Shown here one piece after another: positions 11,817 through 18,327 of a stretch of 64,000 bases of DNA. A program made the position numbers and the translations under genes. The notes below the pieces were generated by a model. That model ran no database searches and was not told where the DNA came from. It was given only the letters and a program-made list of their open reading frames with translations. Source of the stretch: Escherichia phage HX01; sequence record NC_018855.1; one strand, written 5' to 3'. Within the stretch, counting starts at the first letter, position 1. Each line of letters opens with the position of its first letter.

Positions 11817-12452
11817 ATGAAAACTACTCCTATTACTATCGCTATTGACGCAATCATAAAACAAGCTTCTTCTTTGGTCGCTATGGCCAAAGTAATTAGT
11901 CAAAACCCTGCTCGTTATAATGCTATTCTAGAAACTCTTCGACGCCCAGGACTTAGTAATTATGAAAGCCGAGTAATTATTACAGGTGTTGGTAAGAATG
12001 CTAATATTGCAACTAAAGCTTCTGAGACATTTGCTTCACTCGGTATCCCGAGTATGTACTTGAACACTGGACATTATTCTCACGGTGATGCAGGATTCAT
12101 TGCGCCTAATGATGTGTTGATTCATATTAGTCGTTCTGGTAAAACTGAAGAAATGATAGGCGTGGCTAAGCATCTTAAAATGATTCGTCCGAACGTCAAA
12201 CAGATTCTGTTGCATTGTAACCCGGACATTCCACAAGAATACGAAGCTCTTTTTGATTATACGTTCTGTACAGGCATCGCAGTAGAGGTTGATGAGAATT
12301 CTCTGGCTCCGACCATGTCCACTACATTGTTGTTAGCGCTTATCGATACGTTTGCTATCAACCTTTCGTCTGAACGTGGATTTACCTCTAATGACTTCCT
12401 TAAGTTCCACCCTGGCGGTGCACTAGGTGCCATGTTACGAGGCGAACAATGA
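11817..12452 (+). CDS. SIS-domain sugar-phosphate isomerase, arabinose-5-phosphate isomerase-like (KdsD/GutQ type, no CBS domains)
   Basis: 211 aa with motifs matching the KdsD SIS domain by eye: GVGKNANIATKASETFASLG, HGDAGFI, SRSGKT, APTMSTTLLLAL, FHPGGALG. Confidence 0.7.
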   Translation: MKTTPITIAIDAIIKQASSLVAMAKVISQNPARYNAILETLRRPGLSNYESRVIITGVGKNANIATKASETFASLGIPSMYLNTGHYSHGDAGFIAPNDVLIHISRSGKTEEMIGVAKHLKMIRPNVKQILLHCNPDIPQEYEALFDYTFCTGIAVEVDENSLAPTMSTTLLLALIDTFAINLSSERGFTSNDFLKFHPGGALGAMLRGEQ

Positions 12453-12633: not shown

Positions 12634-14319
12634 ATGAAAAAAGCTGTTATTCTTGGTGCTGGACTGGCAACTCGTTTGTATCCAATAACGCATCATATTC
12701 CTAAGGTGCTTGTTAACTATAAACAAGACACTATTCTGAGCAATTTGTATACAATTTATTCTGACCTTGGCGCAGATGAAATTATTGTAGTAGTTCATTC
12801 AAAATTTGCTGAAACTGTTCGAGCTTATTGTGAGCAAGAAGGGTTCAATGTGACTATTCGTACAGTTGATGAAGCGTATGGTTCTGCTTATGCTCTTGCT
12901 AAATTGCACAAAGATTTAGACGGCCATAATGTAATTGTTAACTGGTGTGATATTATTCCTGATTTTGGTTCATGGTCTTGGAATGTTAACGCAATCTATG
13001 TTAAAGGTGACGAATGTCGATATAATTTCGACGGTGAAAATATCACTAACGTAGGTTCAACAGGTGGTAATGTTGTAGGAATTTATCAGTTCAAAGACTG
13101 GGAATTCTATATGGGTTCTACCGATGAGGAAATTCATGAATACTGCAAAGGACGTGATTTCGTAGAATTCCTTTACGGCAGTGCATTCAATAAATCAGAG
13201 CTTATGAATCTAATTGATTTAGGTGATATGCCTAAACTTGAAAAGGCTCATGAAGTTCGTGAACTTAATCGTAGTTTTAATGCCGTTGAAATTGGTGAAG
13301 AAACTGTAACTAAATTCGCATTAACCGAACAAGGCCGAGCTCTTCAGAAAGATGAGATTTCATGGTATCTTAAAGTGAAATCAGATTCAGTTCCTCAGTT
13401 AGTTTCTGTTAATGAAAATAACTTTGAAATGGAACGCATTAAAGGTAAGCCGGCATTTGAATATATTAAATCCAAATCGAGTCTTGCTCGTCCACAAATT
13501 GTTGATGCAATTTTAGATGCACTGAAATTCAGCACAGACACTTATTTTGTAAGTCCTGAAACTGTTCGTCGTGATTTCACTAAAGAATTCTATACTAAAG
13601 TTATTGATCGTTGTGAAAGTATTCAACCATTGATTGATTCATTTGGTAAAATCACACATGTGAACTACACTAAGATTGGGCGTCTGAAGCCAATGTTGAA
13701 ACAAGCTTTAGAACACCTTATTCGTTATCATAACCGTTCTCAGGGACAGTACTCTGTTATTCATGGTGACCCGAACTTCAGTAATACTATGATTACTGAT
13801 AATGGTGAAGTCAAGTTTATCGACCCTCGTGGATATTTTGGTGAAACCAAGATTTATGGACCAAAATTGTACGACGAAGCTAAAGTGCTTTATGCTGTTT
13901 CAGGTTATGATGAATTCAACGCTAATCCGACCTGGGGACAGTTTACTATTGACGAAACAACTTGTAATGTGTCTATTAACATCAATCCATTAGTTTACAA
14001 ATATGGAAAGATGAGTTCGTTTAACGAGTATCATCATTTGGCAGTGGCAATTATCTGGATTGCATTAGGTGGTTATTTCAAGAATAATCCACTTAAAGCG
14101 GTAGCCGCATATTATAAAGGTATGGAACTTCTGACTAAGCAATTACGTAACATGGGCCGTGTACTTCAGGACGGCTCTATTAGTTATGACGTAGCAGAAC
14201 CTGTAACGGCTACTCTGATTACAAAAAATCCTGGTAAATGGGTACTAACTGATAAAGAAACTGGTGTTTCCTATCGTCCAATCGGTGGCGATATCACTCA
14301 TCAATGGGAACGAATCTAA
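12634..14319 (+). CDS. bifunctional sugar-1-phosphate nucleotidyltransferase / sugar kinase fusion (putative NDP-sugar salvage enzyme)
   Basis: 561 aa. N-terminus KKAVILGAGLATRL resembles the G-x-G-T-R-L loop of sugar nucleotidyltransferases; C-terminal HGDPNFSN...FIDPRG resembles the catalytic/Mg-binding motifs of APH/choline-kinase-like kinases. GAGGA ribosome-binding site. Confidence 0.6.
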   Translation: MKKAVILGAGLATRLYPITHHIPKVLVNYKQDTILSNLYTIYSDLGADEIIVVVHSKFAETVRAYCEQEGFNVTIRTVDEAYGSAYALAKLHKDLDGHNVIVNWCDIIPDFGSWSWNVNAIYVKGDECRYNFDGENITNVGSTGGNVVGIYQFKDWEFYMGSTDEEIHEYCKGRDFVEFLYGSAFNKSELMNLIDLGDMPKLEKAHEVRELNRSFNAVEIGEETVTKFALTEQGRALQKDEISWYLKVKSDSVPQLVSVNENNFEMERIKGKPAFEYIKSKSSLARPQIVDAILDALKFSTDTYFVSPETVRRDFTKEFYTKVIDRCESIQPLIDSFGKITHVNYTKIGRLKPMLKQALEHLIRYHNRSQGQYSVIHGDPNFSNTMITDNGEVKFIDPRGYFGETKIYGPKLYDEAKVLYAVSGYDEFNANPTWGQFTIDETTCNVSININPLVYKYGKMSSFNEYHHLAVAIIWIALGGYFKNNPLKAVAAYYKGMELLTKQLRNMGRVLQDGSISYDVAEPVTATLITKNPGKWVLTDKETGVSYRPIGGDITHQWERI

Positions 14320-14705
14320 TGCACCGTGTAGAAAACATGCTTAATCTTTGTTTTGATGTCGATGATTGTATAACAGAGTGGAATAACAACCGTGATTACG
14401 TGAACTTCAAACCAGACGTCGAAATGGTGACTGCCATTAATGCCCTGTACGATGCAGGGCATACCATAACGCTTTACACTGCTCGCGGTATGAAGTCAGT
14501 CGGTCCTGGTCGTATAGCAATTGACATTCTCCCAAGTCTGATTCAGAACTTGGCAAACATTGGATTGAAGTACCATAATTTGCTAACACATAAACCAGTA
14601 TATGATTGGATTATCGACGACAAAGCTATGCGTCCTGACGAATTCAAAGCTCTTATGAATAAAGGCGAATTCGAAACATTTAAATCATATAAACCGAATC
14701 TATAA
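14319..14705 (+). CDS. small HAD-like phosphatase (tentative)
   Basis: Track start 14304 trimmed to ATG 14319 (TAATG overlap with upstream stop). FDVDD near the N-terminus, TLYTARG, HKP and DWIIDD resemble HAD motifs I-IV, but motif I is non-canonical. Confidence 0.35.
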   Translation: MHRVENMLNLCFDVDDCITEWNNNRDYVNFKPDVEMVTAINALYDAGHTITLYTARGMKSVGPGRIAIDILPSLIQNLANIGLKYHNLLTHKPVYDWIIDDKAMRPDEFKALMNKGEFETFKSYKPNL

Positions 14706-14762
14706 TAATTTAAGTAAGACCTGCAAAAACCATCGCGTCAATTAACGTGAGATGCAAAAAAA

Positions 14763-15923
14763 ATGAATACTTTTAAAATCGGAACGAATTTTGATTTAGC
14801 TCTTCTTGATAAAATCGTAGAGCTCAATAAAACTTATCCTAATAGCTTGATAAACGAAGTATACGGCTCTACAAGAGAAATGGCTTTTGTAGCAGCCAGA
14901 CCTGATTTTAGGCTTCCTGACGTTGACAAAAAGATGTTAGAAGATTATGTTAAACGTTGTAACGAATTAGGTATTTGCTTTAACTATACACTCAACACGA
15001 TAAATCCTGGTTCAAAAAGAGAACTAGTTGAGTGGAAGAAGAAAGCTATTCAGGATTATGTTCAGTATCTTTGGTCAATAGGCGTATGGCGTATTACTAT
15101 CGCTAACCCTGTTGTTATGGAAATTGTTCGTGAAGTCAATAAAGACATTGAGATTGAAGTTTCAACAATTCTACATGTCGATGCTGTAACTCAAATCAAA
15201 TACTTGCATGACCAATATAATATCAAAAAGGTCTGCTGTGGAATTCATAAGAACCGTTCAGTTTCTTTCCTGAAACGTGCAGCAGAGTTTTGTAATAAGA
15301 ACAATATAATATTTGAAGTTCTTGTAAATGAGTTCTGTTCTAATGCTGGTAAAGGGTACACAACACATTGTAGCTATCGTGACTCTTGCTATATTTTCCA
15401 TAGCACCGATGTTACAGTAGATGATGCCAAATCCTTAAATGGATATCCAATGCAACACTGTATTAAAGCTCGTGATACAGATCCATTTAACTGGTTGAGA
15501 ACTCGTTTTGTTCGTCCTCAAGATTTGAAACTTTATAATGATATTGGTATCACTCAATTTAAAGTTTCGGGACGTACAGGTAGCACAGACTACATTTTGA
15601 AAGTTCTTGAAGCTTATGCTTCTGAAAAGTTTGAAGGCAATTTGTTGGAATTGTGGAAGCCTTTAGAGACCATTTTCACTCTTGAAAATGAGACCGAGTT
15701 TTCACATACAGTAAATATTGAAACCTCTTTGTTAGACGGCTTTTTAGAAAAAAGGTGGTTCAAACATCCAGATTTCGATTGTGCTAATGAAATCTGCGGG
15801 ACGACGTGTACATATTGTGAAAGATATTATAAACGTCAGTTATCTAAAAATGGGTTATCAGAAAACTCTATATCTATTATTGATATAACTAACTCTGATG
15901 ACGCTTTGAGGTACCCAGAATGA
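14763..15923 (+). CDS. uncharacterized enzyme-sized protein with C-terminal Cys cluster (C-x4-C-x3-C-x2-C)
   Basis: 386-aa ORF; C-terminal DFDCANEICGTTCTYCERYY; function not assignable by eye. Confidence 0.5.
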   Translation: MNTFKIGTNFDLALLDKIVELNKTYPNSLINEVYGSTREMAFVAARPDFRLPDVDKKMLEDYVKRCNELGICFNYTLNTINPGSKRELVEWKKKAIQDYVQYLWSIGVWRITIANPVVMEIVREVNKDIEIEVSTILHVDAVTQIKYLHDQYNIKKVCCGIHKNRSVSFLKRAAEFCNKNNIIFEVLVNEFCSNAGKGYTTHCSYRDSCYIFHSTDVTVDDAKSLNGYPMQHCIKARDTDPFNWLRTRFVRPQDLKLYNDIGITQFKVSGRTGSTDYILKVLEAYASEKFEGNLLELWKPLETIFTLENETEFSHTVNIETSLLDGFLEKRWFKHPDFDCANEICGTTCTYCERYYKRQLSKNGLSENSISIIDITNSDDALRYPE

Positions 15924-16005
15924 TTTCTAGAAAAACTTTTAACCACCAACTTAACGAAGAGATTTTGACTATTAAAATTAACAGCAACGAACAAATTCTT
16001 AAAAA

Positions 16006-16024
16006 GGCCCATAAGGGCCTTTTT
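16006..16024 (+). terminator. rho-independent terminator
   Basis: GGCCC-ataa-GGGCC hairpin followed by TTTTT, about 80 nt after the stop of the 386-aa ORF. Confidence 0.55.
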
Positions 16025-16117
16025 GAAACTAAAGCGGCTAAAGTGATTAAAGAACCTGTTCAACTAGAATACTAAGCCGAAGCTCTACGTTATATCAACA
16101 TCGCTAAGAAATTCAAA

Positions 16118-16143
16118 TAAGCTTTATGAATTGAGTATATAAT
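16118..16143 (+). promoter_or_regulatory. putative middle promoter upstream of the gene-42-like ORF
   Basis: TAAGCTTTA (MotA-box-like, one mismatch) with TATAAT 11 nt downstream. Confidence 0.25.
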
Positions 16144-16161: not shown

Positions 16162-16878
16162 ATGGGAAAACATAACACAATGAAATATATTAAAGCCGCA
16201 GATTTTCAATCCGCATTTAAAGCTGTCAATCGTGAAATTTTAGAAAATCCACAGTTCATTACTGATTCTCGTATTGGACGTTGTAATGAAATTGGGTCTA
16301 TGACAGTAGTTGTTGATACCCCTTCATCATTCAAAATGACCGACCCACGTATTAATCGCATCTCTTATGAATATGCTGAAGATTTCTGGAAATTTATGAT
16401 TTCTGGTGGTACTGATGCAAAAGAAGCATTTAAGGCATATCCTAACGTCGCTAAATTTATTTCTAAACCTAAATCAGACGCTTTGCCTGCAAACTTCAAC
16501 ACTTTCTATGGTCCACGAATTGCGGCCCAGTTACCAACTCTTCTAAAAGAACTTAAAGAAAAACCTAACTCTCGAAGAGTTGTGTTCCAAATTCTAGAAA
16601 GTTCTGATCAGGCTTTGCTTGATTCAGACGAAACACTTGAATATCCATGTACTGACTCAGTGACTTATTATATTCGTGATGGTAAGCTTTATACCCACTG
16701 TCATATGCGTTCTCAGAACTGTGCTGTTGTTATGCAGTTGGATTTTTATCTCCAAGGAAAATTACTTCATTATATCGCTAACGAATGTGGTGTAGAAGTT
16801 GGTGATTATACTCATACCATGGTAAGTGCCCATGTGTTTGAACGTGATTTTGATTATGTTAAAGGATTCCTTGACTAA
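16162..16878 (+). CDS. 42: thymidylate-synthase-fold pyrimidine hydroxymethylase, divergent dCMP hydroxymethylase (gp42-like)
   Basis: 238 aa at the syntenic gene 42 position; shares the NPNSRR, CTDSVTYYIRD and MRSQN blocks with T4 gp42 (NPDSRR, CTNTVQYLIRD, MRSND) but is otherwise quite divergent. Confidence 0.6.
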   Translation: MGKHNTMKYIKAADFQSAFKAVNREILENPQFITDSRIGRCNEIGSMTVVVDTPSSFKMTDPRINRISYEYAEDFWKFMISGGTDAKEAFKAYPNVAKFISKPKSDALPANFNTFYGPRIAAQLPTLLKELKEKPNSRRVVFQILESSDQALLDSDETLEYPCTDSVTYYIRDGKLYTHCHMRSQNCAVVMQLDFYLQGKLLHYIANECGVEVGDYTHTMVSAHVFERDFDYVKGFLD

Positions 16879-17777
16879 TGGCTATTTTCCGCGTACCTAT
16901 TTTGAGTATGCGGTCTTATGAAACTGGACAGTATGCTATCCTTAAGGATGGCAACTTCCAACTTCATTTGCACCGTGCTAATCCGGGTGATGTGATTACA
17001 TATCCACGTAATGCATCTGATATTAAAGAATGTGAACGTCTTTTCCCAGAATTTAAGTTTGTTCCATTATGGTATAAAGATAACGCATATAACACTCGTA
17101 AATATTTCTGGTCTGAAAATGAATTTGTGGTTGATTCATTAATTGATTATTATGATTGTGATTTTCTAATCACAGATATCACTGGATATGACGGCACTTT
17201 TGACGTAGAATTCAATTTCAATATCACTGCAGACCCTAATAAACCACGTTTTTATATTGACGAATTCTTAAAAACCGACATGTTGTCTGTTAATCGTTCA
17301 CTTCAAACTACTGTGTTGAATGAACGTCAAAAAGAAGTGCTGGTTAACGCAGGTGCAGATGGTAATAAGATTATCGTAACGCAGAAAGTTATACGTCCTT
17401 CCATCATGCAGCGTCTTGTAGGTGATTTGGCCCCTATTCATCTAGATGGTATTTTTCATCCATTTCGAATTAGTGACCCGTGTTATCGTTTTGAACAAGT
17501 GGTTGAATGCGCAATTCAATTAGGTCAACCGCTTTATATAACCGATCCAAATAATAGCTTCGACAGAAATAAGTATCCTGAAGAAGCACTGATTCGAATT
17601 TTTAAACCAACTAAAACTGAGTACTATCAAATTCTTAAAGGAAGACCGAAGATTCAATATTTCGAAAATCCTGAAGAAGTATTCCATCCAGGTCTTGGCG
17701 AGTTCATCTACTTTAACGCTTTAATTTCTTCACCGTATAATATACCTAAATATGAAGATGTCGTAATCGAGGAATAA
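16878..17777 (+). CDS. hypothetical protein (299 aa) occupying the beta-gt slot
   Basis: ATGG overlap with the gp42-like stop; no recognisable similarity to T4 beta-glucosyltransferase. Confidence 0.5.
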   Translation: MAIFRVPILSMRSYETGQYAILKDGNFQLHLHRANPGDVITYPRNASDIKECERLFPEFKFVPLWYKDNAYNTRKYFWSENEFVVDSLIDYYDCDFLITDITGYDGTFDVEFNFNITADPNKPRFYIDEFLKTDMLSVNRSLQTTVLNERQKEVLVNAGADGNKIIVTQKVIRPSIMQRLVGDLAPIHLDGIFHPFRISDPCYRFEQVVECAIQLGQPLYITDPNNSFDRNKYPEEALIRIFKPTKTEYYQILKGRPKIQYFENPEEVFHPGLGEFIYFNALISSPYNIPKYEDVVIEE

Positions 17778-17778
17778 A

Positions 17779-18327
17779 ATGGCTAAAATTATTTTAGTAG
17801 ATGGCCCAGATAATGCTGGTAAAACAACTTTCATTAATGACATAATGGAAATTAGTGAAAGATATGTAAAGATTGATTTCCCTAAACGAACAGTTGATGG
17901 ACGTTTCGATGTTAAGTCTCGAAATGAAGTTGGCTGTTTCGAAACGATGTTGAATTATTTAGACCCTACTAAGATTTATCTGTTAGACCGTGGATATATT
18001 AGTAACTGGGTTTATGGACGTATTCGACAAGATGCGGACTCGGTTCTTGACGTTTATGAACAGGATTATGTTCGTCTTTGCCAAAACCATGATGTGTTCA
18101 CAATTATTTTAACACGTAACGAAATGACTGAAAGTTTTGAAGACGACCTTATTACTTTGTCTTCATTCGGTTTTAATACAGTCATTTCATATTTTGAAGA
18201 GTTTGCAATTCATAACGAAATCCAAACGTATCAATTACTTAATCATGATGGTGCTAACAAAGTTATAGGATTTAATGCAAGCGAACGTAATGGTTTGATT
18301 ACAGAAATTATCAAATGGGCTCGTTAA
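17779..18327 (+). CDS. P-loop nucleotide/nucleoside kinase-like protein (thymidylate-kinase-like fold)
   Basis: 182 aa; Walker A ILVDGPDNAGKTT and a DRGY motif resembling the DR(Y/H) of TMK-type kinases. Confidence 0.5.
   Translation: MAKIILVDGPDNAGKTTFINDIMEISERYVKIDFPKRTVDGRFDVKSRNEVGCFETMLNYLDPTKIYLLDRGYISNWVYGRIRQDADSVLDVYEQDYVRLCQNHDVFTIILTRNEMTESFEDDLITLSSFGFNTVISYFEEFAIHNEIQTYQLLNHDGANKVIGFNASERNGLITEIIKWAR

Follow-up and report, generated by a model that had tools for sequence, protein, structure and literature searches.

Three U32-family systems have been characterized, and all of them are linked to O2-independent hydroxylation that requires prephenate, two at pyrimidine C5 (PMC5727448, PMC6599085, PMC10990095). 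RlhA (YdcP), the 5-hydroxycytidine-2501 synthase of Escherichia coli 23S rRNA, depends on prephenate and on Fe-S biogenesis, and needs both C169 and C176 of its U32 motif and the C-terminal cysteines C580 and C611 (PMC5727448). TrhP (YegQ) is a prephenate-dependent, O2-independent U32 enzyme, while the unrelated TrhO is O2-dependent, and the two make the same 5-hydroxyuridine at tRNA position 34 (PMC6599085). UbiU-UbiV consists of U32 proteins with spectroscopically proven [4Fe-4S] clusters and is the anaerobic counterpart of the flavin monooxygenases UbiI, UbiH and UbiF (PMC6747719, PMC10990095). Labelling with 18O identified prephenate as the oxygen donor of UbiU-UbiV, and delivery of hydroxide via prephenate decarboxylation has been proposed (PMC10990095). 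Here we describe a U32-family gene, the ortholog of phage RB69 gene 50, in Escherichia phage HX01. It lies in a stretch of 64,000 nucleotides from record NC_018855.1, which is referred to below as the window.

RB69 DNA carries arabinosyl-5-hydroxycytosine and not hydroxymethylcytosine (Lee et al., NAR 2026, PMC13326640). The RB69 gp48 protein uses flavin to make 5-hydroxy-deoxycytidine monophosphate (5-hydroxy-dCMP), and 18O2 labelling showed that the oxygen atom comes from O2. In E. coli, gp48 and a kinase suffice without gp50, and phages of this type swap cytosine at the level of deoxynucleoside triphosphates (PMC13326640). The thymidylate-synthase homolog of the window is almost identical to gp48 (Table 1), and the neighbour that the initial annotation took for a hydroxymethylase is instead a flavin- and O2-dependent 5-hydroxy-dCMP synthase. 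Because this synthase takes its oxygen atom from O2, an anaerobic gap exists. We propose that the U32 protein probably hydroxylates C5 of a deoxycytidine nucleotide, most likely dCMP, in a prephenate-dependent and O2-independent reaction. This would provide a second, anaerobic route to 5-hydroxy-dCMP beside the flavin synthase, the arrangement that is known from TrhP and TrhO. The TrhP and TrhO genes are unlinked in E. coli, whereas the phage U32 and synthase genes are neighbours. The synthases RB69 gp48, DLP3 gp80 and that of HY126 make the product that we propose for the U32 protein and are encoded in the same cluster, two genes downstream. They differ in having an unrelated fold, FMN (flavin mononucleotide) and oxygen from O2, and they occur in phages of strict aerobes, where U32 does not.

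The gene, its U32 fold and the cluster were already known; the functional reading is new within the accessible literature, where no hydroxylase reading of the U32 gene was found, some key recent papers lying outside that scope. None of the papers on RB69, Thanatos and the Durham collection brings up U32, prephenate or chorismate mutase in connection with this gene. Lee et al. point to two other known pyrimidine hydroxylation pathways, both acting on tRNA and without synthase homologs, and do not link gp50 to them (PMC13326640).

The window comes from an RB69-like T-even phage (genus Mosigvirus). In this region it shares 99.3% identity with Escherichia phage 308Ecol101PP, and megablast matches come from 174 phage records. 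The U32 gene is the sole long open reading frame (ORF) at its site, with abundant stops on the opposite strand, and its product is 99.2% identical to RB69p050. The gene is under strong purifying selection, with a ratio of nonsynonymous to synonymous substitution rates (dN/dS) of 0.02-0.03 among Mosigvirus sequences and of 0.07 in comparison with a Yersinia phage. Its family, its fold, the conservation of its cysteines, this selection, its linkage to chorismate mutase and DNA-glycosylation genes, and its absence from phages of aerobes are all established directly.

The only Pfam domain detected in the protein is PF01136 (Peptidase_U32), with a score of 42.4 bits (cutoff 22.4) over residues 94-286, and a match to PHROG 5757 ('peptidase') spans the full length. 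The NCBIfam UbiU equivalog NF047963 reaches 19.4 bits, below its cutoff of 440. Profile-profile alignment with hhalign against E. coli UbiU, UbiV, RlhA and TrhP gives a probability of 96.7% and an E value of 4e-10; direct hmmsearch of the family profile against the same four proteins returns weak fragments alone. The AlphaFold2 model, with a predicted local distance difference test score (pLDDT) of 93.1 and a predicted template modelling score (pTM) of 0.91, is a TIM barrel that matches U32 and CutC structures. The best match is Mk0906 of Methanopyrus kandleri (PDB 5d88), a U32 TIM barrel; it comprises a barrel of 247 amino acids only, is 12-14% identical, and has no counterpart of the C-terminal cysteine region. 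This match comes from fold comparison alone, as searches of PDB sequences with the protein and with the family profile gave nothing meaningful and one spurious match, to BIM1. Membership in the U32 family is practically certain, and the initial annotation was right at the family level in offering a U32-type Fe-S enzyme as an alternative. The RlhA subfamily was considered and rejected: it needs DUF3656 and about 650 amino acids, and the window protein, with 386 amino acids, has PF01136 and no DUF3656.

The initial annotation had also been reminded of radical S-adenosylmethionine (SAM) enzymes, since the last three cysteines are spaced CX3CX2C with an aromatic residue before the final one. This idea is effectively refuted. 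There is no match to the radical SAM family of Pfam (PF04055). Such enzymes are expected to carry three cysteines in the first barrel loop, near the N-terminus, so that one Fe stays free for SAM, whereas the motif here is C-terminal and has a fourth conserved cysteine, C340, which would occupy the SAM-binding site. Its spacing drifts across the family, the fold is a full U32/CutC-type barrel with no radical SAM protein among the top fold matches listed, and separate radical SAM/SPASM genes lie near U32 in some loci. Databases name the protein 'peptidase', 'putative protease' or 'collagenase-like protease', as do most GenBank records, and MEROPS has historically classed the family as U32. That it is a true peptidase or collagenase is nevertheless highly improbable: no catalytic mechanism is known by which U32 proteins would act as peptidases (PMC5727448), and its nine invariant cysteines, nucleotide-metabolism neighbourhoods and linkage to chorismate mutase have no proteolytic rationale.

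The C-terminal C-x4-C-x3-C-x2-C cluster that drew the initial annotation to this 386-residue protein is real. Both ORF and motif were verified, and C340, C345, C349 and C352 are invariant in 121 homologs, in which identity goes down to 47% and mean column identity is 49%. The protein has 13 cysteines, and about 5% of shuffled sequences place four within 13 residues. By cysteine composition alone the motif is not remarkable; it matters because it is conserved. What had been overlooked is a second motif of four cysteines in the middle of the protein, C192-x10-C203-x5-C209-x23-C233, together with C158. These five are likewise invariant in the 121 homologs, which brings the invariant cysteines to nine. 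The wider family was represented by 131 full-length sequences (the query and 130 cluster representatives). About 100 of them keep Cx3-4Cx2-3Cx2C at the C-terminus, where the spacing shifts to Cx3Cx2Cx2C and similar forms, and the C192-C233 region has four cysteines in 82.

Alignment with hhalign pairs C203, C209 and C233 with UbiU C169, C176 and C232. The first two fall on the GxLCxxxxxxC pair (C169/C176 in UbiU and C169/C176 in RlhA), and C233 falls on C232 within a common GYPxxxC context. In UbiU, C169, C176, C193 and C232 have been proven to ligate the [4Fe-4S] cluster (PMC6747719). The window protein very probably binds an Fe-S cluster. The C-terminal motif is a probable second metal site, either an auxiliary [4Fe-4S] cluster or zinc. 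Its C-terminal position had been called atypical; in the U32 family it is not, because RlhA needs C-terminal cysteines besides those of its U32 motif (PMC5727448). RlhA differs from the window protein in its length of 653 amino acids, its DUF3656 domain, its binding of pre-50S particles and its C-terminal CX7C...CX2C spacing, and its gene does not share the setting in nucleotide and DNA-modification operons. TrhP differs in its substrate, tRNA U34, its length of 453 amino acids and its CX6CX15CX3C spacing. UbiU-UbiV is a heterodimer with one cluster per subunit, a lipid aromatic substrate and the carrier UbiT, whereas the window protein has two cysteine motifs in one chain.

The product of chorismate mutase is prephenate, the compound on which characterized U32 systems depend. 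In Enterobacter phage Entb_45 (Kanagawavirus), a gene for 79 amino acids overlaps the U32 stop codon and is followed by the thymidylate-synthase homolog. Its match to the type II chorismate mutase model of Pfam (CM_2) has an E value of 2.4e-10 and exceeds the cutoff. Chorismate mutases of this type were found by tblastn in 56 phage records from at least 15 host genera, including Klebsiella, Serratia, Yersinia, Enterobacter, Edwardsiella, Erwinia, Pectobacterium, Shewanella, Providencia, Morganella and Proteus, and the annotated feature by the match is usually the thymidylate-synthase homolog. Among the T-even loci examined, 19 carry U32; the mutase stands directly after it in 16 of these, and Mosigvirus or Marfa-like phages account for the three that lack the mutase. 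The phage mutases retain PheA residues R11, R28, K39 and S84, which are active-site residues of the E. coli enzyme. In Kanagawavirus Q7622, both U32 and mutase are absent and the HAD phosphatase gene abuts the synthase gene. Because the two genes are missing together in Q7622 and present in the congeneric Entb_45, they behave like a single accessory cassette. The sister genera would obtain prephenate from the phage mutase, and the phage described here from the PheA/TyrA enzymes of its host. The Kanagawavirus and Dhakavirus slots were compared at loci L010 6637-7693 against L005 5560-8092, and at L009 6468-7004. The Dhakavirus ORF in the U32 slot was considered as an alternative hydroxylase and proved to be a P-loop kinase.

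The distribution of the synthase and of the U32 gene follows the oxygen supply of the hosts in one direction. The synthase is present in 372 phage records, including 57 from Acinetobacter and 20 from Rhizobium. The U32 gene is present in 220, all with proteins at least 80% identical to that of the window, and the genera named in the search output belong to Enterobacterales or are Shewanella. None of the 57 Acinetobacter phage records that carry the synthase has U32. Acinetobacter and Rhizobium are aerobes, and the hosts of U32-positive phages are facultative anaerobes. At the level of Mosigvirus, U32 and synthase are found in 152 records each (at least 95% identity for each), and every one of these with the synthase has U32 as well. 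Among the 185,579 species genomes of GTDB, the subfamily is found in 14, mostly from gut or anoxic-habitat lineages (Erysipelotrichales, Oscillospiraceae, Gastranaerophilaceae, Romboutsia, Tannerella, Lachnospiraceae, Clostridia, Angelakisella and Phocaeicola).

These patterns bear on the view that the U32 protein is a redox helper of the flavin synthase, for instance one that passes electrons to reduce FMN, and not itself a hydroxylase. Two conserved cysteine clusters would suit electron transfer, and in T-even phages the U32 gene adjoins that of the flavin enzyme and always co-occurs with it. This view is very unlikely to be correct: Acinetobacter phages use the flavin enzyme without U32, gp48 and kinase are sufficient in E. 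coli without gp50, the 51 distant loci described below have U32 and, within 6-10 kb of it, no flavin enzyme, and the linkage to chorismate mutase is left unexplained.

The neighbourhood of the gene could also suggest a role on the sugar side, as an enzyme that modifies the arabinose donor. The U32 gene directly follows three arabinose-activation genes, and Table 1 of Lee et al. offers 'sugar or heterocycle reductase' (PMC13326640). However, Acinetobacter phage DLP3 makes arabinofuranosyl-5-hydroxycytosine with SIS, AfhE and HAD proteins alone, from a cluster without a U32 gene (PMC13326640), and the U32 protein is therefore dispensable for base or sugar in air. RB69 DNA has no reported extra sugar chemistry, and no U32 protein is known to act on sugars. 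The DAHP_synth_1 genes that neighbour some distant U32 genes could in principle encode Kdo8P-type sugar enzymes, yet a sugar role explains neither the linkage to chorismate mutase nor the mutase domains fused to DAHP synthases. We regard such a role as improbable. The initial annotation had suggested base or sugar modification; the gene neighbourhoods back the base side rather than the sugar side.

At E <= 1e-30, a library built with clustering at 50% identity contains 478 clusters of this U32 subfamily. Neighbouring genes within about 6 kb of U32 were counted in 51 distant loci, 39-56% identical, from IMG/VR, metagenome contigs and GTDB genomes, mostly viral or genome bins of anaerobe lineages. 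A glycosyltransferase related to that of the window is present in 30 of the 51, an AfhE-like kinase/nucleotidyltransferase in 20, a HAD phosphatase in 17, a SIS isomerase in 12, a P-loop kinase in seven, a dCMP deaminase in five and a canonical ThyA in one. DAHP synthase, with or without a fused chorismate mutase, is found in eight, mostly unrelated viral contigs, and four of these synthases carry a C-terminal CM_2 domain (Pfam, E 1e-9 to 2e-24). The distant loci are a second, independent association of U32 with chorismate mutase. In a compact operon (L044), genes for a glycosyltransferase, SIS, AfhE-like, kinase-like, DAHP-synthase/chorismate-mutase, HAD and U32 proteins follow one another in this order; locus L015 has U32 together with dUTPase/DCD, UDP-galactopyranose mutase and a glycosyltransferase of the TET-associated type. 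Such clusters contain all that glycosylation of a hydroxylated base would take, apart from a known hydroxylase. Because glycosylation genes are present and the synthase was not found within 6-10 kb of U32, U32 is the sole hydroxylase candidate for the glycosyl acceptor in the distant loci. Every rival explanation except hydroxylation of a polymer is weakened by the synthase-free clusters and by the chorismate mutase linkage. That the subfamily is a previously unrecognized class of viral nucleobase hydroxylases is a tentative proposal, one that we hold at slightly less than an even chance.

Several of these loci have further features. Viral DAHP synthases, often fused to a C-terminal chorismate mutase, lie by U32 in L044 (4321-5376), L041 (4411-5433), L045 (4332-5387) and L055 (7079-8197), and others in L013 (8145-8891) and L030 (7080-7826); apparently, shikimate-pathway genes have been recruited into phage DNA-modification operons. 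In two large phage contigs with DNA polymerase III alpha, L002 (9447-11086, on a 466-kb contig) and L014 (6504-8083), U32 is immediately preceded by a dCMP deaminase gene, and MazG/dUTPase-like, thymidylate kinase, uracil-DNA glycosylase (UDG) and radical SAM/SPASM genes are close by. In these contigs the enzyme may act on dUMP instead of dCMP. A conserved cellular cassette that ends in U32 is found in L075 (2996-7089, a Phocaeicola faecalis isolate), L003 (7135-11098) and L004. It consists of a GP88-domain protein, a (guanylate kinase-)SAM methyltransferase, a protein of about 265 amino acids and U32. The L003 cassette goes on with a 5'(3')-deoxyribonucleotidase, a PnuC-like transporter, a deoxynucleoside kinase and an AlaX-like protein, and then with a radical SAM/SPASM protein, one more U32, which is faint, and a nucleoside deoxyribosyltransferase. 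The cassette may be a pathway for a hydroxylated and then O-methylated deoxynucleotide.

T-even phages carry tRNA genes, and the linkage to chorismate mutase fits equally well with a U32 hydroxylase that acts on a polymer. Such an enzyme would convert cytosine to 5-hydroxycytosine in replicated phage DNA, or modify phage or host tRNA or rRNA, much as TrhP and RlhA act on RNA polymers. We consider this unlikely. PF01136 is the only domain detected, whereas RlhA (with DUF3656) and TrhP have additional ones, the gene is fixed in a DNA-modification cluster beside nucleotide kinases, dCMP deaminase or dUTPase/DCD, and the host already has TrhP and RlhA. Moreover, cytosine is replaced at the nucleotide level in these phages (PMC13326640). 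A nucleotide-level substrate is suggested by the kinase genes beside U32, by the deaminase or dUTPase genes nearby and by the pre-replicative logic that such phages follow.

For a deoxycytidine nucleotide hydroxylase, the following mechanism can be envisaged; its metal content, use of prephenate, substrate and oxygen independence are what we infer. C192, C203, C209 and C233 would hold the [4Fe-4S] cluster of the U32 family. The base would undergo a two-electron oxidation at C5-C6 of dCMP, and the second cluster, or zinc, at C340-C352 would remove the two electrons. Hydroxide would be delivered via prephenate decarboxylation, yielding 5-hydroxy-dCMP and phenylpyruvate. Phage kinases would then phosphorylate the product, the polymerase would insert it in place of cytosine, and arabinosyltransferases would act on the 5-hydroxyl group, as in air. 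T4 offers a parallel to the proposed hydroxylase pair, with one ribonucleotide reductase for aerobic and another for anaerobic conditions, and the RB69 annotation includes nrdD and nrdG.

Several observations weigh against a hydroxylase of this kind. No U32 enzyme has been reconstituted in vitro, so that the chemistry of the family is itself inferred (PMC10990095), and the characterized pyrimidine-directed members, TrhP and RlhA, use RNA polymers and not free nucleotides (PMC5727448, PMC6599085). Lee et al. list RB69p050 solely under the reductase label quoted above (PMC13326640). In the window no chorismate mutase is present. Dhakavirus (dhaeg) and Kanagawavirus Q7622 are enterobacterial phages with the synthase and without U32; the correlation between U32 and oxygen is one-directional, and the need for U32 in facultative anaerobes is not universal. 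The diverged thymidylate-synthase homolog was found in none of the 51 distant loci, a search limited to 6-10 kb of U32. The cysteine spacing, CX10CX5CX23C, differs from the canonical CX6CX15CX3/4C and from CX6CX16CX38C of UbiU, and C193, the fourth ligand of UbiU, lacks a counterpart in the alignment. Invariant C192 likely replaces it, because the C192-C233 region has exactly four cysteines in most family members.

If the U32 protein is a hydroxylase of deoxycytidine nucleotides, it would belong to the first prephenate-dependent enzymes of DNA-precursor metabolism and the first U32 enzymes with a small soluble nucleotide as their substrate. T-even phages of facultative anaerobes would have in it an anaerobic twin of the flavin synthase, and in many phages of obligate anaerobes it would be the sole hydroxylase. 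This would be the third case of paired aerobic and anaerobic hydroxylation, after ubiquinone and tRNA 5-hydroxyuridine. It would explain how gut phages have a fully cytosine-replaced, arabinosylated genome where lack of O2 stops the published hydroxylase. Phages with the synthase and without U32 are predicted to be oxygen-restricted, which would have a bearing on phage therapy in the anoxic gut. Glycosylated 5-hydroxypyrimidine DNA would be widespread in anoxic viromes, and some phages would import shikimate-pathway genes as fuel. The U32 substrates studied so far (ribosome precursors, tRNA and a membrane lipid complex) hinder reconstitution in vitro, and a monomeric phage dCMP enzyme could make prephenate-dependent hydroxylation directly testable. 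Dozens of uncultured phage clusters that combine U32 with glycosyltransferase, sugar-activation and chorismate mutase genes would be likely sources of new DNA hypermodifications.

Table 1. Positions of the U32 gene, its cysteine motifs and neighbouring features in the window.
Feature	Position	Strand	Basis or remark
SIS-domain arabinose-5-phosphate isomerase, RB69 gp55 ortholog	11817..12452	+	Pfam SIS; PMC13326640 Table 1
Bifunctional nucleotidyltransferase/kinase, AfhE-like, RB69 gp52:53	12634..14319	+	Pfam NTP_transferase and kinase-like matches; PMC13326640 (kinase/uridylyltransferase)
HAD-type sugar-bisphosphate phosphatase, AfhF-like, RB69 gp51	14304..14705	+	Synteny and annotation; PMC13326640
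Putative sigma-70-like promoter match just 5' of the U32 gene	14679..14706	+	TTTAAA-16-TATAAT, 10/12 matches; surrounding region without enrichment for such matches
U32-family Fe-S protein gene, RB69 gp50 ortholog	14763..15923	+	386 aa; candidate prephenate-dependent, O2-independent pyrimidine C5 hydroxylase
Mid-protein motif C192-x10-C203-x5-C209-x23-C233	15336..15461	+	Probable catalytic-domain [4Fe-4S] site
C-terminal motif C340-x4-C345-x3-C349-x2-C352	15780..15818	+	Encodes CANEICGTTCTYC; probable second metal site; modelled pLDDT 94-96
Small ORF, 51-aa remnant of RB69ORF049c	15920..16075	+	No Pfam match; slot of small ORF and chorismate mutase in related genera
Hairpin 3' of the U32 stop codon, inside the remnant ORF	15999..16026	+	dG -17.7 kcal/mol, z -3.1, 12-bp stem
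Thymidylate-synthase homolog, flavin/O2-dependent 5-hydroxy-dCMP synthase, RB69 gp48 ortholog	16162..16878	+	98% identical to gp48; PMC13326640
DNA arabinosyltransferase candidate, RB69 gp46:47	16878..17777	+	Synteny; PMC13326640
P-loop nucleotide kinase, RB69 gp45	17779..18327	+	Weak AAA/P-loop matches; thymidylate kinase by RB69 annotation

The small ORF that follows the U32 gene was considered as a decayed chorismate mutase. It has no Pfam CM_2 match, is unlike the phage chorismate mutases, and is a truncated RB69ORF049c. This gene encodes 79 amino acids in RB69, and in the window a deletion of 39 bp creates the stop that shortens it. The 308Ecol101PP copy is frameshifted by one extra A, and the two are independent disruptions (comparison loci L077 6257-6496 on the minus strand and L001 9158-9319). 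The remnant matches PM2_045 of Pectobacterium phage PM2 weakly, and the intact RB69ORF049c protein resembles PM2_045, with LFETKA...YxADAFxHS in common.

The stem of the hairpin inside this ORF is conserved in RB69 and 308Ecol101PP, and it is possibly a terminator or an RNA-processing element. Just 5' of the thymidylate-synthase homolog, positions 16119-16143 read AAGCTTTA-11 nt-TATAAT, which resembles the consensus of a T4 MotA-dependent middle promoter. Because a hairpin and then a promoter-like element lie between them, the U32 and synthase genes may be separate transcription units. The AfhE-like gene (561 amino acids) and the glycosyltransferase gene (299 amino acids) are single intact ORFs in the window, whereas the RB69 reference record divides the same two genes into p052/p053 and p046/p047. 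According to Lee et al., the RB69 gene splits are sequencing errors (PMC13326640), and the intact ORFs of the window agree with this.

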